NCBI GenBank assembly: GCA_964652205.1
Contig: CAZZAO010000003.1
Coordinates: 15,196 to 79,195, forward strand
DNA length: 64,000 nucleotides
From: an uncultured Anaerolineaceae bacterium
Lineage (GTDB): Bacteria; Chloroflexota; Anaerolineae; Aggregatilineales; Phototrophicaceae
Direction: 5' to 3'
This document shows positions 7,220 to 49,541 of this stretch, piece after piece. Positions within the stretch are counted from its first letter, which is position 1. Each line of letters opens with the position of its first letter. The translations under genes and the position numbers were made by a program. Below the pieces are notes generated by a model. That model was not told the origin of the DNA. It did no database searches and saw only the letters and a program-made list of their open reading frames with translations.

Positions 7220-7272
7220 CCGGGCGACCTTCACTGCGGTAGATAACAGGACGTAATCTTTTGCATGATAAC

Positions 7273-7875
7273 ATGCTTTCAGCCCACTTGCGAATTAAGA
7301 GCCGTCCGGCGCAACTGTTTTTGAGCGTGATTCTGGCGCTGACAGCCTGCGCTCCCGCCGCGCCCTCAGCCACGCCGACGCAGGAGATCGCCCCGGTTTC
7401 GACCGCCGTCGTCGGCACGGCAGAAGCTGCGGCGACGACAGTGACCGGCACGCCAGCCATCTCGCCCACGCCGACCGTCTCGCCTTACCCGTGGACGGAC
7501 GCCAGCGCCCTCATGAGCGGGCTGTGCTTCGAGTCGGTCGATGACGCGGCGGGCAAGGTCTACGTGCTGCGCAGCGCCGACGAACTGGCCCACTTCTACG
7601 ATCTGGCCGATCACAGCAGGCTCTGCCGCCAGCCGGTCGGTCGCGGGCAGTTCGATTTCGACGGCGGCAGGATTCTGGCCGGGCTGTGGAGCAAGGGGAC
7701 GGGCTGTAGCGCGCATCACGAGGTCGATGACGTTCGCCGCGACGACACCGCGCGGACGCTGTTCATCTTCCTGCGCTTCGTCACCGAAGGCAACTGCACC
7801 TACGAACTGGTACGCCCGTTCTGGATCGCGCTCGGCGGCCTGAATCAGTACGACATACAGATCGTCGTCAGCTAG
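7273..7875 (+). CDS. Putative lipoprotein, function unknown
   Basis: Signal peptide with lipobox (MLSAHLRIKSRPAQLFLSVILALTAC), an Ala/Thr/Pro-rich linker, then a Cys-containing globular region. The start is taken at the in-frame ATG at 7273; the track gives a TTG at 7261. It overlaps the convergent GT-C gene by 8 nt. Confidence 0.7.
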   Translation: MLSAHLRIKSRPAQLFLSVILALTACAPAAPSATPTQEIAPVSTAVVGTAEAAATTVTGTPAISPTPTVSPYPWTDASALMSGLCFESVDDAAGKVYVLRSADELAHFYDLADHSRLCRQPVGRGQFDFDGGRILAGLWSKGTGCSAHHEVDDVRRDDTARTLFIFLRFVTEGNCTYELVRPFWIALGGLNQYDIQIVVS

Positions 7876-9868
7876 CCGCTGGCGCTGCCGGAATCAGCCG
7901 ATAAAGCACGGCGTCACCGGCGTCATAGACGGCGGTCACATCGGCTATCTGTTCCGGTTTCCAGGAGAGAGAGCGCCAGAGCGTCTTCAGTTTTCCGACT
8001 TTAGCGGTCGCCACCATCACGACGTAAAACGGCCTGTCAGGCAGAGGCGTTTTCCGGCCCACGTGAGCGAGGTTGATGTGGTAGATCAGGCCGTACAGAT
8101 CCATCGACATGCAGTAATTGGCGCAGACAATCTGATCTCCGTCATGGAGATTCTCCTGAACATAACGGAACACGGCTTCAGTCCCAGCGGCGCTGCCTGG
8201 CCCGCTCGCCACCTGAATGGAGTTCGAGCGCATTTCGCCGACCGCCAGCACCAGCGCAATCGCCACCGCCAGCGGCAGCAGCACGCGCAGGGAAGGCCGC
8301 GTGAAGCGGCGAGCGACCCAATCGAGCAGATAAATCAGCCCTGCGATGGCCGTCATCAGCAGCACGGGATACAGATAGACCCAGAAGCGCTCGAATGTCG
8401 CCACAAACTGGATGAAGAATACGACAGGCAGCCATAGAACAGCGCCGCTGTACCAGGCGACGCGATAGCGCGACACGCGGGAATGGGCGGCGACGCCGAT
8501 CCCGAAGCCGATGACCAGCAGCCCGAACAGCCAGGGTGACAGATCACGCTGCAAGTTATGCCAGACAATCACCAGTTCGGTACGGAAATAGAAAATGAAC
8601 TCATACCAGCCAATCGGCTCAGTCACTTTAAACCGCGTATCGAGCTTCTGGGCTTCAAGAATGTGGAGCAGCGCCGGGGTATAAAGCACGAGCGTCAGCA
8701 GCGCGGCGGCAACAATACCCAGAAACAGGTTGCGCAGGGGTCGCCAGAATGGCTGCTCCGGGGCGGCGTTGATATACGTCAGGGCGAGCCAGACGATCAC
8801 GATCCCAATCGGGAAAATCATAATCGGGATCGTTGCCACACCCAGCGCGCTGAAGACGGCGAACAACGTCCAGCGCAGCGCCGTCTGGCGATGCGCCAGC
8901 AGGGAAGCCAGCAGCAGCAGGATCAGGAAATCGAGCGTAATCAGGCTGTAGCCGCGCGCATAGGCGGAATATTCGACCATCCACGAGGCAGCCGACGCAA
9001 CAGCCGCCGCGATCAGCCCGACGCGCAGGCTGTAAAACCGCCGTCCGGCGGCGAAGGTAAACGGGACGATCAGGATGCCGGCAAAATAGGCGGGCAGGCG
9101 CATCGTCCACGGATAAAGTCCAAAAATTGACGTGGAAAAATGGACGAGAACGGTGTGAAAAATGTGGTTGTTGGTCGAGTCATAATGGCTGATGACGTCC
9201 GTCAAGGGCAGTGAAGCGAAGTTGATATAGTTCGTACTTTCGTCGTAGCGCAGGGATTTGGGCAGAAAGTAGGTGCGAACCAGCGCGCCGACCAGCACAA
9301 TCGCAATCATCGTGAACAGGACGGCGTTCCGGGTGCGCGCGTCGGAGATCGCGGGGCTGCGCTTCGGCAGCATTAAGTCCAGACGGCGCGCCAGTCGGGT
9401 CGAATGAATCCAGCGCAGGAAACGATCTGGCGCGCCGCTGACGACAACTGCCAGCCCGAACAGAAAAACGGCGATGACCAGCGCGATCCGTATTGCCATG
9501 CTGTCGAACCGAATTTGCTTGTGGATGGTATAGGTTTCGGCTGCGCCATCGCGGAAAGTGACATCCAGCCGGGCCACTGCGGCGCACGATTCCCGGCTGC
9601 CCTGGCCGACCATCGGATCGCCGTCAACTTCAACCGTGCTGATGTTTTCGACGTTCCATGACACCTGCACGCACTCGGAATCAACCAGCACCGTGGTATC
9701 GTCAGCGGAAAAGTTCACCGTCCCGCCATGTTCAGTCGCCGTCACGCTGCCTGGCACTGTTGAGAAGACCGGCACAAAAACAATCGCGGCCAGAATCAGC
9801 AAAGTCACCGCCAGCAGCGCCGCCAACAGCAGTCGATTGATCCGCAAAATTCGCATCATCCCAGTCAA
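7868..9868 (-). CDS. GT-C fold membrane glycosyltransferase (PMT_2/ArnT-like, GT39/GT83-type) with an N-terminal extracytoplasmic beta-domain
   Basis: 666 aa with many TM helices. A DE motif sits in the first large loop (LRYDESTNYINFA). About 100 aa of soluble segment lies between TM1 and TM2, and there is a C-terminal soluble domain. This is the last gene of a five-gene GT-C array. Confidence 0.85.
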   Translation of the reverse strand: MTGMMRILRINRLLLAALLAVTLLILAAIVFVPVFSTVPGSVTATEHGGTVNFSADDTTVLVDSECVQVSWNVENISTVEVDGDPMVGQGSRESCAAVARLDVTFRDGAAETYTIHKQIRFDSMAIRIALVIAVFLFGLAVVVSGAPDRFLRWIHSTRLARRLDLMLPKRSPAISDARTRNAVLFTMIAIVLVGALVRTYFLPKSLRYDESTNYINFASLPLTDVISHYDSTNNHIFHTVLVHFSTSIFGLYPWTMRLPAYFAGILIVPFTFAAGRRFYSLRVGLIAAAVASAASWMVEYSAYARGYSLITLDFLILLLLASLLAHRQTALRWTLFAVFSALGVATIPIMIFPIGIVIVWLALTYINAAPEQPFWRPLRNLFLGIVAAALLTLVLYTPALLHILEAQKLDTRFKVTEPIGWYEFIFYFRTELVIVWHNLQRDLSPWLFGLLVIGFGIGVAAHSRVSRYRVAWYSGAVLWLPVVFFIQFVATFERFWVYLYPVLLMTAIAGLIYLLDWVARRFTRPSLRVLLPLAVAIALVLAVGEMRSNSIQVASGPGSAAGTEAVFRYVQENLHDGDQIVCANYCMSMDLYGLIYHINLAHVGRKTPLPDRPFYVVMVATAKVGKLKTLWRSLSWKPEQIADVTAVYDAGDAVLYRLIPAAPAAS

Positions 9869-9928
9869 CCTGTCAGCTTCACCTGCTCAAAAGAACAAAA
9901 ATTCAGAACTCGGATCGCGCCAGCCGCC

Positions 9929-11851
9929 TTACGGGCAGGCAATCGTCACGGCCTGTAACTCCGCATAAGGCTTGATCGGTTGGCCCTGCGCGTCGAGCGT
10001 CGGAAGCGGCGTGTTTGGCGCGGCGGTGTCGTACAGGCCGACCGTCAGCTTATAGCTTCCCGGCGCGGTATCCGGCGGAATCTGAAGCTCGAAGGTCGGC
10101 CCCAGCACCAGCTCGCCAGCGTCCGTCCAGCTATTGGTCGGGCGGCGATCCGCCGGAACGCCCTCATAGCTGGCGATCTGCGCCGTCTCATCCGCCGTAA
10201 TCAGTCTGGCGAACATCTGATATTCGTGCTGCGGCTGCGAGAGCCGCTCCCACGTCATTGCCAGCCGGAGCGTCGCGCCGGGGCAGTAAGCAGCCTGCGG
10301 CGGCAAATCGTAGCCGAACAGCCCGATCTCGCCGCCGAAATTGGCGCGCAGTCGATGGAATTTCGATAGATCGACCGAGAACACCGCGTCCCGGTTATTC
10401 GTCAGCAGCAGCGGCCCCCGATAGCGGTCGGCGAACTTCTGCTCTTCCTTGAAGTAGCCCCACGCGCTGTGCAGAATATGCAGTTTCGGCGGGTGATCGA
10501 ACAGTTCACGCATGAACTCAATCCGCGTCAGCGTCACCGGAAAAACCGATGAATCCATCATGTAACCGTCATAGGGCGCCGATGTACAGCTCGCGCGATT
10601 CGTCAGGTAGGTAAAGCGGCGCAGGTTGCCCCACAGCCACAGACAGTCCTGGGGCGCGGTGCGCTGCTCGATCAGGTCGATGACCGGCTGAAGCGCTGCC
10701 AGCTCGTCGGTCGGTCGCGGGGAAAACGAGGGCCAGCCGACTCGATCCACCCCAAACCAGACCGCTCCGGCCAGCAGGCAGGCGGCGAGCGCGGCCTGAC
10801 GACCCGCCGACATCCGCGCGGCGGCAGCCCCCGCCAGCGCGATCAAGGCGATCAGCGGGGGAACCATTTCACGATAGTAATAGGGCTTGAGGCCGCGCGC
10901 AATGCTCGCGCCGATGAAGCTCAACAGCACCCAGCCCAGCGCCGCCCACAACAGCGGGCTGCGCGGCTGCGCTCGCAGCAGGATCACTGCCGAACCAGCC
11001 GCCAGTAGGAAATAAGCAGCCATCAGCGGCAGCGTCGCGCCCAGAAAATAATCGTGAAACAGCGAGAAGAAGTCGCCGCCGAAGTGCCACTGGCCGGTTT
11101 CGGTCAGGACATATTCGCGCGCCATCGTGACCAGATGAAACCACATCGACGCCAGCGAGCCATGACTCAGCGCCCAGACGAGCACCAGCGCGCCGCCCAG
11201 CGCCAGCCCGACAGCCACGCCCGCGAGCGCGCGCAGCCTCGCCAACCGGCCACTCGGCGCGCGAATGGCGGCGAAGGCCAGCAGCGCTGGCAGCTCGAAG
11301 GCCAGCGGCTGCTTGGTCATGACGCCACAAACGAAGACCAGCCCGGCAGCCAGCATCCATACCAGCCGACCACGCCCCAGCAGCGCCAGCGTCATGGCCG
11401 TCGCGCCAAAAGCCGCCATCAACACGGTCGTCTCCGGGCTGCTGATTTGCGCGCTGAACAGCAGGCCGAATGCCGCGCCGATCAGCGCCCCGATCCACGT
11501 CAGGCTGATCGCGTAAGCCGCCGCCGCCGCCGCCAGCGCGAGGAAAACATCCATGAACAGCGTGCTGGCGGCAATCGCAGCCACGGTGTTGCCCATCACG
11601 CGGACGAATCCGGCGATGACGACGAACATCCCCGGCGGCTTATTGTCCCAGACATCGCGGTAGAGGACGCCGCCATTCGCCTGAATCCGCCCCATATCCG
11701 CGAACAGCCCGTTATCCGAAAAGCTGATCTCGAACGTCCGCGCCGTGTGAACATACTGCCCGACGGTCATCACGACCGCCCAGAGCAGCAGGCAGGCCAG
11801 CAGCAGGGCGGGAATGAGACGCAGGGGGCGTTGAGCGCCGTCTGCTCGCAT
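9929..11851 (-). CDS. GT-C fold membrane glycosyltransferase, tandem paralogue A (C-terminal beta-rich module)
   Basis: 640 aa, polytopic. First-loop motif YRDVWDNKPPGMF. C-terminal soluble region ANFGGEIGLFGYDLPPQAAYCPG...TVGLYD...ACP. It is a close paralogue of the next three genes upstream. Confidence 0.9.
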   Translation of the reverse strand: MRADGAQRPLRLIPALLLACLLLWAVVMTVGQYVHTARTFEISFSDNGLFADMGRIQANGGVLYRDVWDNKPPGMFVVIAGFVRVMGNTVAAIAASTLFMDVFLALAAAAAAYAISLTWIGALIGAAFGLLFSAQISSPETTVLMAAFGATAMTLALLGRGRLVWMLAAGLVFVCGVMTKQPLAFELPALLAFAAIRAPSGRLARLRALAGVAVGLALGGALVLVWALSHGSLASMWFHLVTMAREYVLTETGQWHFGGDFFSLFHDYFLGATLPLMAAYFLLAAGSAVILLRAQPRSPLLWAALGWVLLSFIGASIARGLKPYYYREMVPPLIALIALAGAAAARMSAGRQAALAACLLAGAVWFGVDRVGWPSFSPRPTDELAALQPVIDLIEQRTAPQDCLWLWGNLRRFTYLTNRASCTSAPYDGYMMDSSVFPVTLTRIEFMRELFDHPPKLHILHSAWGYFKEEQKFADRYRGPLLLTNNRDAVFSVDLSKFHRLRANFGGEIGLFGYDLPPQAAYCPGATLRLAMTWERLSQPQHEYQMFARLITADETAQIASYEGVPADRRPTNSWTDAGELVLGPTFELQIPPDTAPGSYKLTVGLYDTAAPNTPLPTLDAQGQPIKPYAELQAVTIACP

Positions 11852-11853
11852 CC

Positions 11854-13818
11854 CTAGCAGCCGCTCTGGATGACGATATCCTGCAAGCGCGCGTAACTGC
11901 CGTCCGGCTGGCCGTCCGCACCGAGCGTCGAGACGCGCGCCTGTGTCTCGACATCGTAGAGGCCAGCGATCAGCCGATAGGTTCCCGGCGCGGCGTCGGC
12001 GGGCAGTTGCAGTTCAAAGGTCGGGCCGAGGACGTACTCGCCGACATTCACCCAGGTGTTCGTCGGACGCTCCTCTGCCGGGATGCCATCCCAACCGGCG
12101 ATCTGCGCTGTCTCGTCGGCAGTGACCACCTGCACGAACGCCTGATACTGCTGATTCGGCGTCGCCAGAAGCTGCCACGTCAGCGCGGTCGGCAATGTCT
12201 CGCCGGGGCAGTAAGCGGCTTTCGGCGGCAGATCATAAGCGACGAGGCCGATCTCGCCGCCGAAATTGGCGCTCGTCCGGTGCATCTTCGACAGGTCAGT
12301 TTTGTAGATGCTGACGTGACTTTCGATGTCCGCCGCCTGCGGGCTGACGTAGCGATCAGCAAAGTTTTGCAGCTCCGGGAAGAAGCCCCAGCCGGAGCGA
12401 ACGAGAGTCAGCGTCGGGGGATGGTCGAACAGGTTCTGGATGAATTCGATCTGATTTTCGCGCGTCGGATAGACGGTCGTCACCATGACATTCGAGTCGA
12501 GCAGGTTGGCGGTGCAGGAATAGTGGCCGCTCAGAAAGAGAATATCGTTGAGGTTGCCCCATTCGAGCAGGCAGTCGCTCGGCGCGGTGTTGGCGTTGAC
12601 GTAGTCGATGACGCGCTGATGATCGGCGGTCACGTCGGGCGGGCGGGCCGTGAGCGACAGCCCGCCGACGTATTCGTAACCGAACCAGACTGCGCCGATC
12701 AGCGCCAGCGCCGCGAAGGGAACCTGCCAGCCTGACGCGCGGCGCTGGAGCGCTGCCAGCGCCAGCGCGATCAGCGCGATGAACGGCGGGATCGTCTCGC
12801 GGAAATATTCGGGGCGCAGGGCGAGCTGCACCGCCGCCGCGCCGAACGAGAGGATCACCCATAAAAACGTGACCCAGATAATCGGGTCGCGCCGCCGCAC
12901 GATCAGCAGGACGATGGCGGAAATCGCGCCCAGAATGAACAGGATTGCCATATACGGCAGCGTCGAGTCGAGGAAAATATCGCCGATGAACGACAGGCCG
13001 TACTCGCTGAAGCGATCAGTGCCAGTCGGCCCACCGACGTATTTCCAGGTGCTGCCGAAGACGTGGAACCAGAACAGGTCGGTCATGCCGTTGGCGACCG
13101 TCCAGAGCAGGATCAGACCCATCAGCAGGGCGAAGCCGACGCCGACCGCGACCGCCGAAACGAGTTTGCGCCGCCACGGCCCCGGCGTGCGGATCATGGC
13201 GAACAACAGCAGCGCGGGCATCTCGAAGCCGACCGGTTGCTTGGTCATGAAGCCGAGGCCGAAGATCAGGCCCGACAGCAGCATAACCAGCAGCCGTCCG
13301 CGACCGGCCAGCGCGACGGCCACCGCCAGCGCGCCGAAGGCTGCCATCGTGATCGTCGCGTCCAGCCCGTCCTGCGCGCCGGTATACAGCAGCGCAATCG
13401 CCACGCCGATCAGCGCCGCCAACCGCGATCCGCTCAGTTGGTAGGCCACCAGTCCGCTGCAGATGACGAAGGCCACCAGCGTGAAGATCAGCGCGGCATT
13501 CATGGCGGCGAGCGTGTTGCCGAGCGCGCCGACGAAAATGCTAATGATGAAAATGTTGACTGGCGGCTTGTTGTTCCAGAAATCGCGGTAAAAGACCTGC
13601 CCGGTCGCCTGACCGCGCGCCATCACCGCCCAGATGCCGTCGTCGTTCTGCGCCAGCGAGCGCACCGAGGTCGTGCGCGTGTAGGCCGCCAGCGTCACCA
13701 GCAGCGCGTAAACGATCAGGATCGCCACCAGCACAACCATGATCCGGCGCAGCAGCGGCTCGTTCAGAAGCGAGCGCCGGGGGGGCTTTGCGCTCAGGCG
13801 GTTATCGAGAGTTGCCAT
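11854..13818 (-). CDS. GT-C fold membrane glycosyltransferase, tandem paralogue B
   Basis: 654 aa. Motif YRDFWNNKPPVNIF. C-terminal ANFGGEIGLVAYDLPPKAAYCPG...IAGLYDVETQ...SGC. The stop codon lies 2 nt from the start of paralogue A. Confidence 0.9.
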   Translation of the reverse strand: MATLDNRLSAKPPRRSLLNEPLLRRIMVVLVAILIVYALLVTLAAYTRTTSVRSLAQNDDGIWAVMARGQATGQVFYRDFWNNKPPVNIFIISIFVGALGNTLAAMNAALIFTLVAFVICSGLVAYQLSGSRLAALIGVAIALLYTGAQDGLDATITMAAFGALAVAVALAGRGRLLVMLLSGLIFGLGFMTKQPVGFEMPALLLFAMIRTPGPWRRKLVSAVAVGVGFALLMGLILLWTVANGMTDLFWFHVFGSTWKYVGGPTGTDRFSEYGLSFIGDIFLDSTLPYMAILFILGAISAIVLLIVRRRDPIIWVTFLWVILSFGAAAVQLALRPEYFRETIPPFIALIALALAALQRRASGWQVPFAALALIGAVWFGYEYVGGLSLTARPPDVTADHQRVIDYVNANTAPSDCLLEWGNLNDILFLSGHYSCTANLLDSNVMVTTVYPTRENQIEFIQNLFDHPPTLTLVRSGWGFFPELQNFADRYVSPQAADIESHVSIYKTDLSKMHRTSANFGGEIGLVAYDLPPKAAYCPGETLPTALTWQLLATPNQQYQAFVQVVTADETAQIAGWDGIPAEERPTNTWVNVGEYVLGPTFELQLPADAAPGTYRLIAGLYDVETQARVSTLGADGQPDGSYARLQDIVIQSGC

Positions 13819-13935
13819 CGTGCCTGTCCTTGCTCGGCCTAAGACTCACAAAGGTTTGCGATAGGGTGTCAGGAGCCACACCCCTGTTCAGCCGCCTATC
13901 GTTCACCGCCCGCCATGAGAGCGCAGCGCAGCCTT

Positions 13936-15933
13936 TCACTCGACGGGAGCCGCAGGCTGCGGAGGGGCCGGGGATGAGAGAGCGCAATCTGCCCTCACCG
14001 TAATATCCGTCAGGCGCGCGTAGCTGCCGTCCGGCTGGCCGTCCGCCCCCAGAGTCGGCAGGCGCTGCTGCGTTTCGACCTCGTACAACCCGGCGATCAG
14101 CCGATAGGTCCCCGGCGCGGCGCTGGCGGGAATCTGAAGCTCGAAGGTCGGCCCCAGTATAACCTCGCCGGGATCGACCCAGGTATTGGTCGGGCGGCGA
14201 TCCGCCGGGACGCCATCGTAGCCGACGATCTGCGCCGTCTCGTCGGCGTTGACGAGCTGGGTGAACGCCTGATACTGCTGTTTCGGCGTCGCCAGCCGCT
14301 GCCACGTCAGCGCGGTCGTGAGCGTCGCGCCGGGGCAGTAGCTGGTTTTCGACAGATCGTAGGCAATCAGGCCGATCTCGCCGCTGAAGTTGGCGCTCGT
14401 CCGGTGCATCTTCGACATATCGACCTTGAACATCGAGAAGGTGTCGCGCGTCATCACGACCGGCCCCAGATAGCGGTCGGCGAACTTTTGCAGTTCCTTG
14501 AAGTAGCCCCAGCCGCTCTGCATGATCTGGAGCGCCGGGGGATGGTCAAACAGGTTCTGCATGAACTCGATCCGGTTGATGACGACCGGGAAAGCTGACG
14601 AGTCCATCAGGAAACCTTCGTAACCGGCGCTGACGCAGCTTGGCCGCCCGGTCAGATAGTCGAAGTAGAGCACGCCGCCCCACGGCCAGATGCAGTCAGT
14701 CGGTTTGGTGTTGGCCTCGATGTAATCGACCATCGGGGCGATCACCGCGTCACGCGCGGGCGGGCTGGCGCTCCAGGCGGGCAGCCCGACCCAGCGATAG
14801 CCGAACCAGACCGCGCCGACCAGCGCCGCCGCGCTGCCGACCGCCTGCCACGGCAGACTCATCCGCCGTAGGGTCGGCACAGCCAGCGCGATCAGCGCGA
14901 CCAGCGCGGGAACCATCTGCCGATAGTATTCGGAGCGCATCCCGCGCGCCAGACTGGCCCCGGCGAAGCTCAGAACCACCCAACCTATCGCCGTCCAGAC
15001 GAGCGGATCGCGCCTGCGCCGCGCCAGCAGCACCAGCGCTGCGCCGAGCGCCAGCAGGAAAAACGGGGCCATGCGCGGAACCGTCGAGCCGAGGAAGTAG
15101 TCCTGAAACAGCTCCAGCCGCTCCTGCGTGAACAGCCACTGGCCGTCGGCGCGAAAGACGTACTGCGAGGCCGACTGGAAAACGAAAAACCACATCCGTT
15201 CGGCGACGCCGTTGCTCAGCGCCCAGACGACAAACGCGCCCGCAGTCAGCGCCGCGCCGACCAGCGCCAGCAGAGGGGCCAGCAGCCTGCGCCGCCAGCT
15301 TCCCGGCGCGCGCAGAAACGCGAAGGCCAGCAGGACGGGAAGCTCGAAGGCCAGCGGCTGCTTGGTCATCACGCCGCAGCAAAAGGCGACACCCGCCAGC
15401 AGCATCCACGGCCAGCGTCCGCGTCCGAGCAGCGCCAGCGTCATGGCCGTCGCGCCCATCGCCGCCATCAGAATGGTCGTCTCCGGGTAGGCCAACTGCG
15501 CGCTGAACAACAGCGCCAGCGCCCCGCCGACCAGCCCGCCGAGCTTCGACCGGCTGAGCGCATAGGCCGCCGCCGCGCCGCTGACGGCGAAGAAAAACTC
15601 CATGAAGAGCGTGCTGGCCTCAATCGCCGCGACGGTGTTGCCGAGCGCCTGAACGAACGGGGCCATAACGAAGAACATGAACGGCGGCTTGGTGTCCCAG
15701 ATGTCGCGGTAGAGGACGCCGCCAGTCGCCTGAATCCGCGCCGTTTCCGCGAACCAGCCGGTATCGAGGTACGTCAGGTCGAAAGTGATCGGCAGGCGAT
15801 AGTAGCGCGAGGCCGTCAGCGTCACGCACCAGACGAGCAGCGCGGCCAGCAGCGCCGCGACCAGCAGCCGAAGCGCCTGACTGGACGGGGTCGGACGCGC
15901 CGTGCGCCAATCGGCCTGCGATGGGTCGGTCAT
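13936..15933 (-). CDS. GT-C fold membrane glycosyltransferase, tandem paralogue C
   Basis: 665 aa. Motif YRDIWDTKPPFMFF. C-terminal ANFSGEIGLIAYDL...YCPG...IAGLYEVETQ...ADC, plus a short Pro-rich tail. Confidence 0.9.
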   Translation of the reverse strand: MTDPSQADWRTARPTPSSQALRLLVAALLAALLVWCVTLTASRYYRLPITFDLTYLDTGWFAETARIQATGGVLYRDIWDTKPPFMFFVMAPFVQALGNTVAAIEASTLFMEFFFAVSGAAAAYALSRSKLGGLVGGALALLFSAQLAYPETTILMAAMGATAMTLALLGRGRWPWMLLAGVAFCCGVMTKQPLAFELPVLLAFAFLRAPGSWRRRLLAPLLALVGAALTAGAFVVWALSNGVAERMWFFVFQSASQYVFRADGQWLFTQERLELFQDYFLGSTVPRMAPFFLLALGAALVLLARRRRDPLVWTAIGWVVLSFAGASLARGMRSEYYRQMVPALVALIALAVPTLRRMSLPWQAVGSAAALVGAVWFGYRWVGLPAWSASPPARDAVIAPMVDYIEANTKPTDCIWPWGGVLYFDYLTGRPSCVSAGYEGFLMDSSAFPVVINRIEFMQNLFDHPPALQIMQSGWGYFKELQKFADRYLGPVVMTRDTFSMFKVDMSKMHRTSANFSGEIGLIAYDLSKTSYCPGATLTTALTWQRLATPKQQYQAFTQLVNADETAQIVGYDGVPADRRPTNTWVDPGEVILGPTFELQIPASAAPGTYRLIAGLYEVETQQRLPTLGADGQPDGSYARLTDITVRADCALSSPAPPQPAAPVE

Positions 15934-17903
15934 GCGCCTGCTCCCGCGCAGTCGCGCACGATCATGGCCTGTAAATGAGCGTAACTGCCGTTCGGCTGGC
16001 CGTCCGCGCCGAACGTCGGCAGATGAGCCTGCGTCGTCACGTCGTACAGCCCGGCGATCAGTTGATAGGTCCCCGCTTTCGTCTCCGCTGGAATCTGAAG
16101 CTCGAAGGTCGGGCCGAGGATCAGCTCATGCGGCTGAGTCCATTCGTCGGTCGGGCGCTTGTCCGCCGGGACGCCATCCCAACCGGCGATCCGCGCCGAT
16201 TCGTCCGCCGTGACGACCTGCGCGAACGCCTGATACTGATGGGTCGGCGTCGCCAGCCGCTCCCACGTCAGCGCCAGCGGCAGTGTCGCGCCGGGGCAGT
16301 AAGCGTCCTGCGGCGGCAGGTCGTAACCGAACAGCCCGATCTCGCCGCCGAAATTGGCGTCAGCGCGATGAAATTTCGAGCTGTCGAAGCTGAAAACGGC
16401 GTAGCGCCCGCTCGCCAGTACCAGCGGCCCGACGTAGCGATCCGAGTATTTCTGCAATTCAGGGAAATAGCCCCACGCGCTGTTGAGGATTTCCAGCGTC
16501 GGCGGACGGTTGAACAGGTCATGCATATACTCGACGCGGAAGGCATCGACCGGAAAAGTCGATGTATCCATCAGATAGCCTTCGTAGGACGCGCCGACAC
16601 AGCTTCGCCGCCCCGTCAGGAAGCTGAAATGAATGATGTTACCCCACATCCACAGGCAGTCGTCGGGCTGCGTGTGCGCCTCAATATAGTCGATGACCGG
16701 CTGATCGTCGGCCAGGCCGCCGGTCGGACGGCTGTCGATGCGCTGCACGCCGACCCATTCGTAACCGAACCAGACCGAGCCGAGCAGCAGCAGCGCGCTC
16801 AGGGCGATTTTCGGCACGGCGGACATCCGCTGAACCAGCGGCACAGCCAGCGCGACCAGCGCGATGATCGGCGGGATCGTCTGGCGATAATAGGCAATCG
16901 ACAGGCCACGCGGCGTGCTGGCCGCGACGAACGCGAGCAGGAACCAGCAGATTGCCACCCATGTTAGCGGATTGCGCCGCTGCCGGACGAGCAGCACGAC
17001 CCCGGCCACCCCGGCGAAGACAAAGCCGGTCAGCATAAACGGCAGCGTCGATTTCAGGAAGTCGTCCTGAAAAATCTCCAGGCCCCCGCTGGAGAAATGC
17101 CAGTTGCCATCCGAGCGCAAGATGTACTGACCGACCGAACTGTAGACGTGGAACCACATCGACGGAGCCGAGTCGTTGCTGATCGCCCACCCCGCAAAGA
17201 CGGCGACCGCCAGCACAACGCCGATCAGCACACCGGCGGCAGCCAGTAACTTGCGCCGCCGCGTCCCCGGCGCGCGGACTACCGCGAAGGCCAGCAGCGC
17301 CGGAAGCTCGGCCATCAGCGGCTGCTTGGTCAGCGCGCCAAAGACGAACACCGCGCCCGCCGCGATCATCCACACCCGGCGTCCGCGCCCCAGCAGCGCC
17401 AGCGTCATCGCCGCTGCGCCGAGCGCCGCCATCGGGATGGTCGTCTCAGGGATGCGGAAATTGCTGCTGAAGATCAGCGCCAGCGCCGCCCCAACCACCG
17501 TCGAAGCCCACGAGCCGCTGATCGCATAGGCCAGCGCCGTCAGCGCGACGACAAAGCCGACGTTCATGAAAACCGCGCTGGCCGCAATCGCCGTGACCGT
17601 GCTGCCCATCGCCTTGACGAACAGGCCCATGAGGATGAACATGCCCGGCGGCTTATTGCTCCACAGGTCGCGGTAGAGAACGCCCTCGGCGACGGTGCGC
17701 GCTTCTTCGGCGAAGATGCCGACGTTGCCAGACGAGGCGGTTACGTCAAGCCGGAGCGGATTATTATAGTAATGGGGGATGGCGACGATCAGCGCCCAGA
17801 CGACGAGGAATCCCAGCACCAGCGCCGATGACAATCGCGGCGGTCGTTCGCGGGTCCGAGTTTGCGGGCGAGCGGTGAGTCTCAAAACGGCAAGCTCATT
17901 CAA
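15930..17903 (-). CDS. GT-C fold membrane glycosyltransferase, tandem paralogue D (first gene of the array)
   Basis: 657 aa. Motif YRDLWSNKPPGMFI. C-terminal ANFGGEIGLFGYDLPPQDAYCPG...IAGLYDVTTQ...RDC. ATGA stop/start overlap with paralogue C at 15930..15933. Confidence 0.9.
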   Translation of the reverse strand: MNELAVLRLTARPQTRTRERPPRLSSALVLGFLVVWALIVAIPHYYNNPLRLDVTASSGNVGIFAEEARTVAEGVLYRDLWSNKPPGMFILMGLFVKAMGSTVTAIAASAVFMNVGFVVALTALAYAISGSWASTVVGAALALIFSSNFRIPETTIPMAALGAAAMTLALLGRGRRVWMIAAGAVFVFGALTKQPLMAELPALLAFAVVRAPGTRRRKLLAAAGVLIGVVLAVAVFAGWAISNDSAPSMWFHVYSSVGQYILRSDGNWHFSSGGLEIFQDDFLKSTLPFMLTGFVFAGVAGVVLLVRQRRNPLTWVAICWFLLAFVAASTPRGLSIAYYRQTIPPIIALVALAVPLVQRMSAVPKIALSALLLLGSVWFGYEWVGVQRIDSRPTGGLADDQPVIDYIEAHTQPDDCLWMWGNIIHFSFLTGRRSCVGASYEGYLMDTSTFPVDAFRVEYMHDLFNRPPTLEILNSAWGYFPELQKYSDRYVGPLVLASGRYAVFSFDSSKFHRADANFGGEIGLFGYDLPPQDAYCPGATLPLALTWERLATPTHQYQAFAQVVTADESARIAGWDGVPADKRPTDEWTQPHELILGPTFELQIPAETKAGTYQLIAGLYDVTTQAHLPTFGADGQPNGSYAHLQAMIVRDCAGAGA

Positions 17904-18080
17904 TCGGCAGTTAGCGAGCCAGTATACACGATACCGCGCTCGAACCTCAAAGCCGATCCTCGCGGTTGGCCGTCCGTCGATCCGGGGCGCGATGGGAACA
18001 CCCGCTTCACCGGGGGCTTTGTGGACGCCCTCATTGCAGGCTGCGAACGAGCCAGGGACAGGGATTCAGAAGCACAGCCG

Positions 18081-18122: not shown

Positions 18123-19223
18123 ATGCCGCTGAGGGCGATCATCGACGGGCAGGAAGTCATCGCGCCGCTGCTCGATGAGGCAGCGTGGGACGCGCTGCAT
18201 CGCCGCGTGGCCGATGAGCATCTGCGCGTTATTCTGCCCTGCTGCGACGTCGAGGGCTATTTGCGCCGCAGCCAGCACGGGACGCAGCATTTCGCCCACA
18301 AGGTCAGCACTGACTGCCTGAGCAAAGGCGAAACGGTCGAGCATCTGCGCGCCAAAGCCGAAATCGTCGTCGCCTGCCAGGCGGCGGGCTATGACGCCTC
18401 GACTGAAGTCGCTGGCGACAACTGGCGCGCCGACGTGCTGGCGACGCGCGGGTCGGCGCGGATCGCGTTCGAGGTACAGTGGAGCTTTCTGCGCCTGCGC
18501 GACGTGCTTTATCGCCAGCGCCGGTATGCCGACGACGGCGTGCGCGGCTGCTGGTTCTTCCGCCGACCGCCCGCGCCGCTCCAGAACACCGACGACCTCG
18601 GCCCGGAACTGGAAGCGCGGCGCGAACTGCCGCTGTTTCATCTGTTCGCGGCAGTCGATGGCTCGTATGCCGTCGCCCTGCACCGCCGCCTGCACAAGCT
18701 GCCCGATTTCGTCGGCGCGCTGCTCGGCGGGCGCATCCGCTTCTGCGAGCGCGCCCGTTATCAGGGCAGGCGAGCGCTGCGCGCCGTCTTCTTCACGCTC
18801 GACTGCGCTCGCTGTGGGCAGCGCTCACAGCTCTACGTCGTCGATACGCGCCAGACGGCAGGCTGCGGCGTCCGTTTTCAGCCCGACGACGTCGATGCTG
18901 CCGAATCATTCACCTTTCATCCAGCGGTGCTGGCGGCGCTCGACCGCTACCGGCAGACCGAGGCCGGGGCGCATCTCCGTATGGGCGCAATCAAGGTTCG
19001 CAGCGACGGCCACAACTCATATCGCTCGTTCGGCTGCGCGCATTGTGACGCCATCTTCGACGCGCGTCAGGTCGGGCTGGCGTTGAGCGGGTCACGCCGT
19101 TTCCGGGACGACCCGGCGGCGGAGTCGTTCGAGGTGACGCTGCCGCTGCGCGTCAGCGGCGTGCTGCCGCACTGGTGCTATCCCGCCGACGGCCATTTCT
19201 GCTGTGAAAGCGCCGGTGGCTAA
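18123..19223 (+). CDS. CoiA-family (competence protein CoiA-like) PD-(D/E)xK nuclease-fold protein with a Cys-rich C-terminal region
   Basis: 366 aa. Collinear with the CoiA N-terminal and nuclease regions: ...HFAHK..., ETVEHLRAK, RADVLA, IAFEVQWS (E-x-Q/K-type motif). The C-terminal half carries CxxC pairs (CARCG, CAHCD). Confidence 0.75.
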   Translation: MPLRAIIDGQEVIAPLLDEAAWDALHRRVADEHLRVILPCCDVEGYLRRSQHGTQHFAHKVSTDCLSKGETVEHLRAKAEIVVACQAAGYDASTEVAGDNWRADVLATRGSARIAFEVQWSFLRLRDVLYRQRRYADDGVRGCWFFRRPPAPLQNTDDLGPELEARRELPLFHLFAAVDGSYAVALHRRLHKLPDFVGALLGGRIRFCERARYQGRRALRAVFFTLDCARCGQRSQLYVVDTRQTAGCGVRFQPDDVDAAESFTFHPAVLAALDRYRQTEAGAHLRMGAIKVRSDGHNSYRSFGCAHCDAIFDARQVGLALSGSRRFRDDPAAESFEVTLPLRVSGVLPHWCYPADGHFCCESAGG

Positions 19224-25920: not shown

Positions 25921-27042
25921 ATGATCGACGTCAAAGAAGTCAAGGAACTGCTCGAACAAATCGGAGATCAAACACTCAGCCTGTACCTTGATGTCAGCGA
26001 AGGCAAGCTCGAAAATCAGGCGGTCGCGCCGCAGTGGAGCGTGTGGCTCAAGAATACGCTGCGCGATCTGGGCAGCGGCCTGACCCGTGAAGACGCTCAG
26101 GCATGGCCGCAGATTCGTGACCGGGTCGAAGGCTATTTCGACCCGTACAGCGCGGGCTACAAGCCGCAGGCGCGCGGGATTGTGCTGTTCACCAGTCCCT
26201 CGTATCAGCAGGCTTACGAGCTGCCGATCTCCTTCAAAAATCAGGCGTCGTTCGGCAAGCCCCACGTCGCGCCGCTGTTGTGGGCGATTGACGAGTACGA
26301 GCCGTATCTGGTCGCCATGGTCGATAAGGAAAAGGCGCGCTTTTTCAGCAGTTATCTGGCGTCCATCGACTTTCAGGACAGCCTCGAAATCGACCTCGAC
26401 CAATACGATTTCGCCGAGCGCCCGATGAGGAATGTCACCATCGGCGGCAACGAAGGCGGCGGTGGAACGAACAAGGAAGCGTGGCAGCGGATGATCAACG
26501 AGCACGAGCGGCGCTTCTACCGGCAGGTAGCGGATACGGCGGTTAAACTGGCCGACCAGCAGAAGGCCGAGCGCATCATCATCGCTGGCTCGGAAGACTC
26601 GCTGCACGAGGTCTACAACCTGTTCAGCGAGCACGATCAGACGCGAATCGCCGGGATGGCAGCCATCCCGATGCAGTCAACGACTGCCGAAATCTTCCAG
26701 CAGATTTTGCCGGTGGCGCAGGCGTTCGAGCGCGAGCAGGAGATGACGCTGGTTTCCGAAGTGATCGACTTCGCCCGATCAGGCGGGCGCGGCGCGCTGG
26801 GGCGCGAGGCGGTCGATAGGGCGATATCGATGCAGCGCGTCGAACGGCTGATCCTGCCGTGGCCGGTCGACAGCCCTTCGATGAATGAGTATCTGGAAAC
26901 GCTCGCTTACCGAGCGCTCCAGCTCAACAGTCAGGTTGAGCTGGTTCATGAGGCCGCCGCAGATCGACTGACAGCGGAAGGGGGCGTCGCGGCGCGGCTG
27001 TATTACGCCATCGACGCCCGACCGGACAGCGACGGACATTAA
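25921..27042 (+). CDS. Bacterial eRF1-fold protein (baeRF1 / host-attachment / VLRF1-like family), paralogue 1
   Basis: 373 aa. The central loop TIGGNEGGGGTNKEAWQRMINEHERRFYRQVADTA aligns with the eRF1 GGQSALRFARLR...Y.RKVAE region, but there is no GGQ. It is followed by an eRF1 domain-3-like ERIIIAGSEDSL... Confidence 0.75.
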   Translation: MIDVKEVKELLEQIGDQTLSLYLDVSEGKLENQAVAPQWSVWLKNTLRDLGSGLTREDAQAWPQIRDRVEGYFDPYSAGYKPQARGIVLFTSPSYQQAYELPISFKNQASFGKPHVAPLLWAIDEYEPYLVAMVDKEKARFFSSYLASIDFQDSLEIDLDQYDFAERPMRNVTIGGNEGGGGTNKEAWQRMINEHERRFYRQVADTAVKLADQQKAERIIIAGSEDSLHEVYNLFSEHDQTRIAGMAAIPMQSTTAEIFQQILPVAQAFEREQEMTLVSEVIDFARSGGRGALGREAVDRAISMQRVERLILPWPVDSPSMNEYLETLAYRALQLNSQVELVHEAAADRLTAEGGVAARLYYAIDARPDSDGH

Positions 27043-43994: not shown

Positions 43995-45164
43995 TTAATA
44001 GCGGAGAAGCGCCGCAGCAGGTGAAGTGGCTGGCATTTCCGCCAGTGGCAGCGCATAGACGATTCCGCCGTTTCGGAGAGTCTGCATCGCGGCAAAATCC
44101 AGCAGCGCGAGGTCATCTTCCTGGCTTTGTCCATCCTGATAATGAACAACTTCCCCGCTATCAGGATTGAAGATGCCCCAGACCTGCGTATCGACGGCCA
44201 GAATGAGTTTGTCTACGCGCCCGTAAAAGGCTGCCGCGACAATTTCTTCAATGCGATCCGTGGCGTTTTCCGTGACGGCAAGCTCGTGATATTGCTCGAT
44301 CACCTTTTCCATCGCCTGACGGAAGTAAGGCTCGACGATGGGCCAGGTCTGTTCCTGGAGTTCTTCAGGGCGCAGCAGATCAGGATTGCCTGTGACCCCT
44401 TCCGGCATGATATTCGCGTATTCGCTGACCTGACGGTAAATCGGTAGCAGGTAATCGACACCCGCCAGAACAAGCGGTGCCTGCTCCTCACGAAAGACTT
44501 CTTTCAGCCCGGCATCGACCACATTAAGAAACTGCTCGATCCTGACCTTCTGATCTTCATCGCCCGGCCCCTGTCCATGAAACATGGCCGCCCGTTTGCC
44601 GCCCTGGGCTGTACTCGGCGATGTCCCCGAATGGAATTGCAGGTGTTTTTGCAGATTATCGGACTTGAGAGCTTCGTCCAGACTCCCCGGTACACCCTCT
44701 GGCAAATCAATTTGACCGACGCTGTGCCGGGTTCCTTCAAACAAACGAACTTCATTCTGACTGATTGCCAGAATGTAATAATGTCCGTTGTTGGTGAATA
44801 ACGGTAGAACCGGCTTGACGTAATAGGACTGAGCGATGACGAGCAGTTCTTCAACGCGAAAAGGCAGGTGATAGTAATGGAAGTCATCCTGGGCGATAAA
44901 GACCGCCAGAGCATCACGCTGATGCTGCCAGAAGTACGGCGCATTCAGTAAGGCCTGCGCCGGTTGGAGCAAGGCGCTCACCTGACGAGGCCCCATGCCC
45001 CTGTCCAGCAGACGCAGCTCGGCTTCTCGAAGCAGGTTTTTGAAGCGGATCGGGTCTTGCTGAGTATCCTGACCGGCGCGATGGGTCGGCAGGAAAATCG
45101 AGATACTCGGACTCCCGGTTTGCTGCGCCAATTCCTTGATCTGCTCTAACGTCAAGTTTTCCAT
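43995..45164 (-). CDS. Bacterial eRF1-fold protein (baeRF1 family), paralogue 2
   Basis: 389 aa. RBS GGAGGGAG. N-terminal TLEQIKELAQQTGSPSISIFLPTHRAG..., typical of baeRF families. Central loop AAMFHGQGPGDEDQKVRIEQFLNVVDAGL at the GGQ-loop position, with no GGQ. Domain-3-like C-terminal region (LVLAGVDYLL...). Confidence 0.75.
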   Translation of the reverse strand: MENLTLEQIKELAQQTGSPSISIFLPTHRAGQDTQQDPIRFKNLLREAELRLLDRGMGPRQVSALLQPAQALLNAPYFWQHQRDALAVFIAQDDFHYYHLPFRVEELLVIAQSYYVKPVLPLFTNNGHYYILAISQNEVRLFEGTRHSVGQIDLPEGVPGSLDEALKSDNLQKHLQFHSGTSPSTAQGGKRAAMFHGQGPGDEDQKVRIEQFLNVVDAGLKEVFREEQAPLVLAGVDYLLPIYRQVSEYANIMPEGVTGNPDLLRPEELQEQTWPIVEPYFRQAMEKVIEQYHELAVTENATDRIEEIVAAAFYGRVDKLILAVDTQVWGIFNPDSGEVVHYQDGQSQEDDLALLDFAAMQTLRNGGIVYALPLAEMPATSPAAALLRY

Positions 45165-47592: not shown

Positions 47593-49233
47593 TTAGATTT
47601 CCGAGAATGGATTCCCGGCGATATCGACGAAGCGCAGGTGCTTGAGTTCCTTACGCGCGTAGTTGAGCTGCCACGGCGTCTCGAACAGGATCACCCAGCG
47701 GTCATGATCGTCGCGGGTGCGAATGCTCTGCATCGGCCAGTGCGCGGCGCGAATGTCGTCCTCATCGCCTTCGATCCACGCCGCCACGCTCGATGGCATC
47801 AGGTCGATGGACGTCTCGACGTTATATTCGGCCTGAAGGCGCGAAGCGACCACCTCGAACTGAAGCTGGCCGACCGCGCACAGGATCGGCTCGTGGCGCG
47901 TCGAATCGACGCCGTACAGCACCTGCACCACCCCTTCCTGCAAAAGCTGTTCGAGTCCCTTATTGAACTGTTTGTATTTCTCGATGCTGACGTTCCGCAG
48001 CCGCGCGAACACTTCGGGCTGGAAACGCGGGATCGACGGGTAGCTGAAGCTCTCGCCGACGCAGACCGTGTCGCCAATCGTGAAGATGCCCGGATTGCTC
48101 AGGCCGATGACATCGCCCGCGAACGCTTCCTCGACCGTCTCTCGGTCACGCGCGAACAGCCGATGAGGCCGCGTCATGCGGACTTTGCGCCCCAGGCGCG
48201 GATGCGAAACGGTCATGTCCTTCTCGAAGCGCCCCGAACAGATGCGCATAAACGCCAGACTGTCGCGGTGCTGCGGGTCCATGTTGGCCTGAATCTTGAA
48301 GACGATGCCGCTGAAAGCGCCGCTCGTCGGCTCGACCGGGCCGATGCTGCTTTCGCGCGGGCGCGGGGACGGCGCGAAGGCGCTCAAGGCTTCGAGAAAC
48401 GGCTCGACGCCGAAGTTGTTGAGCGCGCTGCCGAAGTAAACCGGCGTCAGCGTACCGTGAGCGAAAGCTTCCGGGTCGAACGGCGCGCCCGCGCCCGCTA
48501 GCAGCTCGGCGTCGTCGATCAACTGATGATGCGCCCGCTCGCCAATTGTCGCCTTCAACAGCGGGTCGTAGAGGTCAGTCACCTGCACCGGAGCGCGGAA
48601 CTTGCCGCGCGCCGTCCGCTCGAACAGCAGCACCTGCTGGTTTTGCAGGTCGTAGACGCCCTGAAAATCCGGGCCGCTGCCAATCGGCCAGTTCATCGGC
48701 GAGACGCGCAGCGCCAGCACCCGCTCGATCTCGTCGAGCAGTTCGAGCGGGTCGCGGCCCGGACGGTCGAGCTTGTTGATGAAGGTCAGAATCGGCAGCT
48801 TGCGCATCCGGCAGACCTCGAACAGCTTTCGGGTCTGCGGCTCGATACCTTTGGCGCTGTCGAGCACCATCACGGCGCTGTCGACGGCCATCAGCGTGCG
48901 GTAAGTGTCTTCGCTGAAATCGCGGTGGCCGGGCGTGTCGAGCAGGTTGAAGATGCGGTCTTCGTACTCGAATTGCAGCACCGATGAGGTGATCGAGATG
49001 CCGCGCTGCTGTTCCATCGCCATCCAGTCCGAGGTCGCGCTGCGCTGGTTTTTGGCGGCGCGCACCGACCCGGCCTGATTGACCGCTCCAGCGTAGAGCA
49101 GCAGCTTCTCAGTCAGCGTCGTTTTACCGGCGTCCGGGTGTGAGATGATGGCGAACGTCCGGCGGCGCTGAATTTCCCGCTGAAGTTCGGTACCGGGATT
49201 GATCGTCGTAATCGCAGGGGCAGGTTGTAACAT
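47593..49233 (-). CDS. prfC: Peptide chain release factor 3 (translational GTPase)
   Basis: Start taken at ATG 49233 (MLQPAPAITT...RRRTFAIISHPDAGKTTLTEKLLL). G-motifs AHPDAGKT/DTPGH/NKLD (here ISHPDAGKT, LLDTPGHRDF, INKLD). Collinear with my recollection of E. coli PrfC over the full length. Confidence 0.95.
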   Translation of the reverse strand: MLQPAPAITTINPGTELQREIQRRRTFAIISHPDAGKTTLTEKLLLYAGAVNQAGSVRAAKNQRSATSDWMAMEQQRGISITSSVLQFEYEDRIFNLLDTPGHRDFSEDTYRTLMAVDSAVMVLDSAKGIEPQTRKLFEVCRMRKLPILTFINKLDRPGRDPLELLDEIERVLALRVSPMNWPIGSGPDFQGVYDLQNQQVLLFERTARGKFRAPVQVTDLYDPLLKATIGERAHHQLIDDAELLAGAGAPFDPEAFAHGTLTPVYFGSALNNFGVEPFLEALSAFAPSPRPRESSIGPVEPTSGAFSGIVFKIQANMDPQHRDSLAFMRICSGRFEKDMTVSHPRLGRKVRMTRPHRLFARDRETVEEAFAGDVIGLSNPGIFTIGDTVCVGESFSYPSIPRFQPEVFARLRNVSIEKYKQFNKGLEQLLQEGVVQVLYGVDSTRHEPILCAVGQLQFEVVASRLQAEYNVETSIDLMPSSVAAWIEGDEDDIRAAHWPMQSIRTRDDHDRWVILFETPWQLNYARKELKHLRFVDIAGNPFSEI

Positions 49234-49541
49234 GAGGGGTCCCTCATACTCAAGCGCGGCATGGCAATGGCTGAAGCGCGGAAACGTCTGGCAAAGCTGG
49301 AGTCGCAGCCAGCGAACGATCATCCCTCGCGGACAGACATTCCATGGACTCCTAAGAGTGAAGGTCGAACCGATTCGGTTGGGCCGTGGGCTTCACGCAG
49401 CGCGGCGGAAAGCCCGCCGCCATGAGGAGCGAATTATAGTCGCCGAAGGACTCAAAGGCCAGAGGGAACCGACTCGGCAATCGACGGTTTATTGTGACTG
49501 GGCCTTTATGTTATCGGCGGCAAAGGGAGCGTACCGAAAAA

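Follow-up and report, generated by a model that had tools for sequence, protein, structure and literature searches.

The stretch of DNA examined here (the window, 64,000 nucleotides, nt; positions 15,196 to 79,195 of contig CAZZAO010000003.1, assembly GCA_964652205.1) comes from an uncultured Anaerolineaceae bacterium of the phylum Chloroflexota, and carries at 7868-17903 of its minus strand five co-directional open reading frames (ORFs) that encode polytopic proteins of 640-666 amino acids. By sequence profiles and structure models, all five are assigned to glycosyltransferases with the GT-C fold (GT-C_A), in the ArnT/PMT_2 clan. Enzymes with this fold glycosylate extracytoplasmic acceptors from polyprenyl-phosphate sugars. 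We find it fairly probable that the five genes, in what is probably a single transcription unit, serve to extend or decorate an envelope glycan.

The genes are numbered 1 to 5 in their order of transcription. The array begins with gene 1 (15930-17903; 657 residues from a TTG start, 629 in the database gene call), an ArnT-like GT-C paralogue, and continues with its paralogues gene 2 (13936-15933; 665 residues), gene 3 (11854-13818; 654 residues; the most divergent of genes 1-4 in the membrane part) and gene 4 (9929-11851; 640 residues). It ends with gene 5 (7868-9868; 666 residues, or 663 from an ATG), which belongs to a different GT-C family and has an RYDE motif. The junctions were read from the sequence: the stop of gene 1 and the start of gene 2 overlap in an ATGA, and the gaps that follow are of 117 nt, 2 nt (genes 3 and 4) and 60 nt. 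ORFs, translations and junctions agree in all these points with a first-pass annotation made from the sequence alone, which had described five consecutive minus-strand genes for polytopic proteins of this size. A putative promoter of the sigma-70 kind lies just upstream of gene 1, on the same strand (17921-17950; TTGAGG, 18 nt, TATACT; a consensus match only). Terminator-like matches within the array were no commoner than in shuffled sequence, and neither phase-variation repeats nor mobile elements were found within it. The five genes probably form one transcription unit.

The family assignment was obtained from profiles and models. The proteins of genes 1-4 are 46-57% identical to each other. 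Compared with PMT_2 (PF13231; gathering threshold 26.1 bits), only gene 3 scored above the threshold (26.4 bits), with gene 2 at 19.6 and gene 1 at 19.1 bits; genes 4 and 5 gave no match, and homologues of gene 5 do carry precomputed PF13231 matches. The best score against the ArnT equivalog (NCBIfam PRK13279) was 19.3 bits with a cut-off of 567, so the proteins are not ArnT orthologues. No PMT (PF02366) or MIR domain was matched in any of the five proteins with the Pfam models, and no match was found when single proteins were compared with the PDB sequences by phmmer, or the gene 5 family profile with the PDB. The profile of a 44-sequence family containing genes 1-4, on the other hand, matched ArnT of Cupriavidus metallidurans (5EZM) over the membrane core, with E 1.1e-10. 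The AlphaFold2 (AF2) model of gene 2, built on the same 44-sequence alignment, had a predicted local distance difference test score (pLDDT) of 93.8 and a predicted template modelling score (pTM) of 0.90. Foldseek searches with this model returned ArnT first (E 2.9e-8), followed by PglB, DPY19, ALG3 and AftB, with PIG-U also among the matches. The AF2 model of gene 5 (pLDDT 76) had ArnT as its best match too (E 4.8e-10), followed by PglB, ALG9, STT3, Emb and Pmt4, with Pmt1-Pmt2 also among the matches. In a profile-profile comparison the gene 5 family and the genes 1-4 family were distantly related (93.8% probability, E 1.8e-7). The family profile and the fold matches of genes 2 and 5 thus place all five proteins in the ArnT/PMT_2 clan, in accordance with the earlier claim of five GT-C membrane glycosyltransferases, and the assignment outside glycosyltransferases that had been allowed for in the first reading does not fit this fold.

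The model of gene 2 contains 11 transmembrane (TM) helices, a first extracytoplasmic loop (EL1) with two short helices, an alpha/beta domain at residues 394-505 and a beta-sandwich at 506-650. From the fold and the conserved ArnT ligand residues described below, the enzymes are predicted to have the N-terminus inside, with the C-terminal domains outside and the active site in the first outer loop. The extracytoplasmic location of the tail domains is supported by two Cys pairs: C414/C433, invariant in 44/44 family members, and C533/C650, which co-vary (both present in 37 sequences, both absent in 6), and by which the C-terminal beta-sandwich is predicted to be disulfide-stapled. The module is encoded on the minus strand at 13984-14418 in gene 2 (with the C533/C650 pair), and its equivalents at 15948-16379 (gene 1), at 11857-12291 (gene 3) and at 9935-10366 (gene 4). 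It was not matched by any Pfam or NCBIfam model. In fold comparisons it matched the carbohydrate-binding domain of the O-antigen transporter Wzt (6O14), with E 7e-4, and also the immunoglobulin-like (Ig-like) sandwiches of NPC2, RhoGDI and an MG2 domain. The suggestion that the C-terminal module resembles a carbohydrate-binding module (CBM) is therefore borne out at the level of predicted structure, a beta-sandwich whose best solved matches include the Wzt domain.

The two parts of these proteins differ in how widely they occur. The TM core plus middle domain of the genes 1-4 family is rare and confined to a few Anaerolineae lineages: a profile search among 1.84 billion representatives gave about 57 full-length clusters at E<=1e-30, and all the named family matches were Chloroflexota/Anaerolineae metagenome-assembled genomes. 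A word-indexed homologue search gave only two close relatives, so that the size of the family became apparent only with the exhaustive profile search. As to source names, a distant homologue only was named, as 'hypothetical protein' and 'glycosyltransferase family 39 protein'. The family profile matched 2,251 representatives at E<=1e-10, mostly via the beta-sandwich. These matches are often the tails of proteins of 650-1,200 residues, with several matched stretches each and sometimes three to four copies, and the N-terminal parts of the carriers are PMT_2, PMT, TMEM260-like or PTPS_related. In the genome studied, the beta-sandwich (about 140 residues) occurs on 24 ORFs, and the middle domain is essentially specific to genes 1-4.

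Concerning the age of the array, a 15-kb contig of the assembly GCA_040959605.1 (L001) carries four orthologues in the same order, which are 75%, 77%, 80% and 75% identical to genes 1-4 and adjoin the same CoiA-like gene as the array does. In the phylogenetic tree, each of genes 1-4 pairs with its collinear L001 partner (support 100), and these eight genes, together with a database copy of gene 1, form one clade (support 100). Between the orthologues, the ratio of nonsynonymous to synonymous divergence (dN/dS) was 0.20-0.25 at a dS of 0.60-0.78; among the paralogues, dS was 0.74-1.08 and DNA identity 58-66%. The synonymous sites are near saturation even between orthologues (proportion of synonymous differences, pS, 0.41-0.50), so that these values cannot date events. 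The collinear orthologues, the tree pairing and the paralogue dS indicate that genes 1-4 arose by three duplications that preceded the divergence of the two genomes, and the dN/dS values that each copy has since been under purifying selection. Recent duplication, which had been proposed at first, is rejected on the same three grounds, and the single copy in relatives, free of selection, that had been entertained as an outcome was not what was found in the related genome. The array is represented differently in a sister genome of the same genus (G001, contig L021): the syntenic site has two copies only, which fall outside the four-gene clade in the tree, and no gene-5-like gene.

The active site was located by a hidden Markov model (HMM) alignment with ArnT. 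In this enzyme, D55/E56 make up the active-site motif after TM helix 1 (any substitution of the first Asp abolishes GT-C function), K85 contacts the carrier-lipid phosphate, Y345 lies near the phosphate, and D158 and K203 contact the sugar or the acceptor (PMC7801869). ArnT residues D55, K85, D158, K203 and Y345 correspond to D57, K82, E151, K191 and Y336 of gene 2. Within the family, K191 and Y336 are invariant (44/44), D57 is found in 39/44 members and K82 in 38/44. The equivalents of K85, D158, K203 and Y345 are kept in all of genes 1-4, while an Asp in the D55 column is present only in genes 2-4. The motif YRD(V/F/I/L)W(D/N/S)(N/T)KPP, reported in the first-pass annotation as common to genes 1-4, is present in the four proteins. 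It does not hold the catalytic acid: the Lys of the motif aligns with the phosphate-binding K85 of ArnT, and the catalytic Asp equivalent (D57 in gene 2) lies 20 residues upstream, within a D-x-G-x-F-A-E motif.

Gene 1 deserves separate consideration. Its codon 17724-17726 (minus strand), in the column of ArnT D55, encodes Asn60, a residue that is shared by the L001 orthologue. Gene 1 furthermore has Ser where most family members have D80, retains the remaining ligand residues and shows a dN/dS of 0.245. Since Asn replaces the catalytic Asp with the other ligand residues and the same constraint retained, gene 1 probably encodes either a non-catalytic partner or an enzyme of variant mechanism. 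PIG-U, a subunit of the GPI (glycosylphosphatidylinositol) transamidase, is a precedent for the use of the GT-C fold without catalysis. More generally, the pattern of first-loop acids differs per paralogue and is the same in each L001 orthologue; at gene 2 positions 57/63/77/80 it reads N E D S in gene 1, D E D D in gene 2, D V D N in gene 3 and D D D D in gene 4.

This divergence was quantified by counting the positions identical within every orthologue pair but different between paralogues. Such positions amounted to 35% of the outer loops, 18% of the TM helices (Fisher p=0.0014 versus the loops) and 13% of the beta-sandwich (p=1e-4 versus the loops). Because the active-site loops have diverged in paralogue-specific, conserved ways, genes 1-4 may be taken to differ in donor, acceptor or linkage specificity. 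The beta-sandwich displays the opposite behaviour. Mean paralogue identity was 66% in this module versus 48-49% elsewhere, with orthologue identity being similar across all three domains, and for the adjacent genes 2 and 3 identity rose from 44% (TM part) and 42% (middle domain) to 77% in the beta-sandwich. At the beginning of the module, a 28-nt tract of gene 2 (14390-14417, plus-strand coordinates; codons for SKMHRTSAN) is identical to 12266-12293 in gene 3, and exact runs of 28 nt are expected in none of the shuffles. At this tract the L001 orthologues of genes 2 and 3 both encode SKMHRTRAN, with three synonymous differences between them. The tract is probably the trace of a micro gene conversion. 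Of the long identical runs between paralogues that had been reported, this one is real; it is one short tract only, and overall DNA identity is 58-66%.

The extent of gene conversion was evaluated in this genome and in the sister genome. In the sister genome, the tandem pair at L021:7969-11902 is 36% identical in the TM part, 41% in the middle domain and 74% in the beta-sandwich, where identity reaches up to 86% in DNA and an exact run of 34 nt occurs. The two copies form a clade in the beta-sandwich tree only (support 100/98), the rest of each protein being in different, well-supported clades. Module-level gene conversion between neighbours is thus clear in that genome. In the window, a run test for genes 2/3 gave p=0.0055 (one of six pairs, uncorrected), and the approximately unbiased (AU) test did not reject a clade of genes 2 and 3 in the TM plus middle part (p=0.187), i.e. 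there was no significant conflict between domains. Given this AU result, conversion within the array is supported by the identity contrasts and the 28-nt tract only, and we call it probable. So, the gene conversion supposed in the first reading holds for the 3' beta-sandwich module and not for whole genes. As the beta-sandwich seems to be kept alike by conversion, the copies may be supposed to share one acceptor polymer or partner.

With respect to gene 5, the RYDES motif and the extra N-terminal beta domain noticed at first were both recovered: the protein contains LRYDEST, with D209/E210 invariant across the gene 5 family and taken as its counterpart of the acidic residue that GT-C enzymes carry in the first outer loop, and its model shows an N-terminal membrane anchor helix, an extracytoplasmic beta domain of eight strands (40-116) and a small C-terminal alpha/beta domain. 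Dispersed paralogues of gene 5 occur in this genome on contigs C116, C166 and C67. In L001, two gene-5-like genes follow the four paralogues (L001:12357-14996; 39% identity over the full length, and 58% for the copy cut by the contig end), so the gene 5 family also duplicates in place.

Among known systems, ArnT (undecaprenyl-phosphate-L-Ara4N:lipid A transferase, family GT83; 5EZM/5F15) is the best match by profile and, for both gene types, also by fold. With the array proteins it has in common the GT-C_A core, the two short helices of EL1, the periplasmic alpha/beta domain after the last TM helix and, in genes 2-4, the five aligned active-site residues. It differs from them in having 13 TM helices instead of the 11 predicted here, in its Zn ligand E84, which aligns with Asn or Thr, and in lacking both the extra C-terminal beta-sandwich and the arrangement in four tandem paralogues. 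The host, a monoderm Chloroflexota bacterium, is of a group not known to make lipid A, unlike the hosts of ArnT. Another comparison can be made with ORF12 of Citrobacter youngae O1 (family GT136), a GT-C ribofuranosyltransferase of a three-component system, which transfers ribofuranose from a polyprenyl-phosphate donor to an already polymerised O-polysaccharide outside the membrane. Of its 11 TM helices, the first is followed by a small helical domain and the last by a beta-rich, CBM-like one, and an essential Asp lies near TM1 (PMC11127046). This layout, compared as architecture described in that paper, matches that of genes 1-4. However, GT136 was founded because it showed no similarity in sequence to existing GT families, whereas the array family still matches ArnT and PMT_2; and ORF12 is single-copy and adjoins its donor synthase and flippase, whereas the array is multi-copy and has no such neighbours.

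The mycobacterial EmbC-EmbA-EmbB proteins (GT53) and the Aft enzymes assemble an envelope polysaccharide from decaprenyl-phosphate sugars, one linkage-specific step after another. As in the array, Emb proteins are tandem GT-C paralogues with C-terminal CBMs, and Emb chains are among the fold matches of gene 5. They are larger (about 1,050-1,100 residues, 15 TM helices and two-part CBMs, compared with 640-666 residues and 11 predicted TM helices), and Emb (GT53) gave no sequence match to the array proteins, only distant fold matches for gene 5. The comparison with embCAB drawn in the first-pass annotation is thus reasonable in architecture, but it is an analogy with another phylum, with no detectable sequence relationship. 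The protein O-mannosyltransferases (GT39) are set apart by the PF02366 and MIR domains, of which the array proteins have no match, and by the DE motif, present in gene 5 only. Finally, two other arrays of the same genome (on contigs C2 and C11; see below) are alike in consisting of co-directional PMT_2-like genes, and such Chloroflexota arrays often have the same tail beta-sandwich; the subfamily is a different one from that of genes 1-4.

Taken as a mechanism, the favoured reading would be as follows. Each enzyme would take a sugar from a polyprenyl-phosphate-linked donor and transfer it to an acceptor at the outer face of the cytoplasmic membrane. Genes 1-4 derive from one ancestral gene by the three old duplications, after which the active-site loops diverged, and their tail beta-sandwiches have probably been kept alike by conversion between neighbours, which would point to a common acceptor polymer or partner. 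Gene 1 would act as a non-catalytic partner or a mechanistic variant, and gene 5 would contribute a separate GT-C type with its own outer beta domain. Together, the proteins would most likely lengthen or decorate a glycan in the envelope of a monoderm filamentous bacterium; a glycoprotein as their target is less likely.

Several observations weigh against this interpretation. The direct Pfam and NCBIfam matches of the five proteins are weak or absent, and gene 1 is devoid of the catalytic Asp in both this genome and the independent assembly GCA_040959605.1. Lipid-binding Ig-like folds (NPC2, RhoGDI) match the beta-sandwich as well, so that its binding of sugar is putative. Nothing in our analysis sets a glycan apart from a protein or a lipid as the acceptor. 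The single operon is deduced from gene spacing and one promoter-like match, these being its only grounds. No gene for donor synthesis, flippase or glycan backbone adjoins the array, and no GT2 or GtrA gene was found in its flanks; a search of the window and the genome gave no linked donor-synthesis or flippase gene, and the only GtrA-like gene of the genome lies on another contig, at C46:15228-15833. A three-component scheme may nevertheless operate with unlinked genes.

The alternative explanations start from the same data. The paralogues might constitute a set for surface-glycan variation, i.e. alternative decorators comparable to the serotype-converting GT-C enzymes of the Gtr type, each adding a different side branch to a common polymer, and turning over rapidly in copy number in response to phages or predators. 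The copy number at the syntenic site does vary (2 in G001, 4+1 here and 4+2 in L001), a homogenised acceptor-binding module combined with divergent active-site loops would suit different decorations of the same polymer, and the load of about 86 GT-C genes in this genome is the top count of the approximately 120 Chloroflexota genomes sampled. Nonetheless, four copies kept in order under purifying selection in two genomes, at dS of about 0.6-0.8, do not look like fast turnover, and the array contains neither phase-variation repeats nor mobile elements; we regard this explanation as possible, though doubtful. A still less likely one is that the proteins are O-glycosyltransferases of the PMT kind, acting on secreted or S-layer proteins, with the paralogues forming hetero-oligomers in the manner of Pmt1-Pmt2 or serving different protein substrates. 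The weak PMT_2 matches, the DE motif of gene 5, typical of PMTs, the presence of Pmt4 and Pmt1-Pmt2 among the gene 5 fold matches, and a catalytically impaired gene 1 that could serve as a partner subunit would all be in line with it. But no protein has a PF02366 match or a MIR domain, it is ArnT and not PMT that tops both the profile and the fold matches, and the tail module resembles the glycan-binding Wzt domain and not a peptide-binding one.

It is very improbable that the proteins are not transferases at all but GT-C-fold lipid-binding or scaffold subunits, like PIG-U in the GPI transamidase. The Asn of gene 1 in two genomes and the appearance of PIG-U among the fold matches could be so explained, but genes 2-4 keep all five aligned ArnT residues and gene 5 its invariant DE, so that such a role fits gene 1 at most. 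A single gene might also have been amplified recently and neutrally, without maintenance of the individual copies; the 28-nt identical tract between two copies is what can be said for this reading. The reading is refuted by the collinear orthologues of all four copies in another genome, by the tree and by a dN/dS of 0.20-0.25 per copy, to which a paralogue DNA identity of only 58-66% and the occurrence of stop codons in no copy can be added, and we give it practically no credit. The reading as enzymes that extend or decorate an envelope glycan is the one retained.

The genomic surroundings were considered next to this reading. The array is flanked on one side by genes for PBP1, a SnoaL protein, a DtxR-like regulator and a metallophosphoesterase, and on the other by the CoiA-like gene, a short-chain dehydrogenase/reductase (SDR), an NHL/thioredoxin protein and a GH2 enzyme; a GT9 gene is found 34 kb from the array. 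The CoiA-like gene (18123-19223, plus strand), which encodes a nuclease domain, is divergent from the array and conserved at this place in both L001 and L021. An ORF of 204 residues with no family match (7261-7875, plus strand) lies between gene 5 and the gene for the metallophosphoesterase, and an ORF of 217 residues is in the same place in L021. Elsewhere in the window, two genes of the eRF1-like (baeRF) type and one for an RF3-type GTPase are located within 25 kb (25921-27042, plus strand; 43995-45164 and 47593-49323, minus strand). The only contextual link of the family to glycan synthesis is a distant member (31% identity) directly downstream of two GT4 genes and one GT9 gene. A separate glycan cluster occupies C46:13909-22160 and comprises a GT4 gene, the GtrA-like gene and genes for a polytopic membrane protein of 497 residues, a UDP-sugar decarboxylase-like SDR and a protein of 1,078 residues, all assigned from the translations except GtrA, which was a database match. 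The products of this cluster could supply or flip lipid-linked donors.

The frequency of such genes was also estimated. The 5.5-Mb genome contains 84 PMT_2 matches, 76 of them above threshold, which together with genes 4 and 5 make about 86 GT-C genes; of these, 36 are grouped into 13 co-directional arrays. Five genes each are found in the array described here, in C2:34749-44022 and in C11:11082-20348, the last consisting of four close paralogues (50-63% identical) and one divergent gene; these are the three five-gene arrays of the genome. The number of PMT_2 matches was 14-56 in relatives of the same order and 0-37 in a phylum-wide sample, this genome being the highest of about 120 Chloroflexota sampled. 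By these counts the array appears ordinary for its context, and the high GT-C load typical of the lineage, with this genome at the top. No paper on expansions of GT-C, GT39, GT83 or PMT_2 in Chloroflexota was found in the literature.

The array is not a new kind of system; it yields concrete hypotheses on how the family diversifies and on which parts set specificity. It offers a compact case for study, with four old paralogues that have collinear orthologues, clear differences in the active site, a shared homogenised tail and one copy without the catalytic Asp. A bolder proposal, to which we attach a rather low likelihood, is a hetero-oligomeric extracytoplasmic assembly line. In it, a catalytically dead gene 1 product would be the lipid-donor-binding or scaffold subunit, next to three active paralogues with differently tuned loops, and recurrent gene conversion between neighbours would keep the beta-sandwiches matched to one lineage-specific envelope polymer. 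If this were true and general, Chloroflexota would as a rule expand their very large GT-C sets by divergence of the catalytic loops while the binding module evolves in concert. These bacteria abound in soils, sediments, mats and wastewater sludge, and little is known of the chemistry and assembly of their envelope. In the genome studied here, about 86 genes are assigned to glycosyltransferases that face outwards and depend on lipid donors, and many of these genes lie in tandem arrays.

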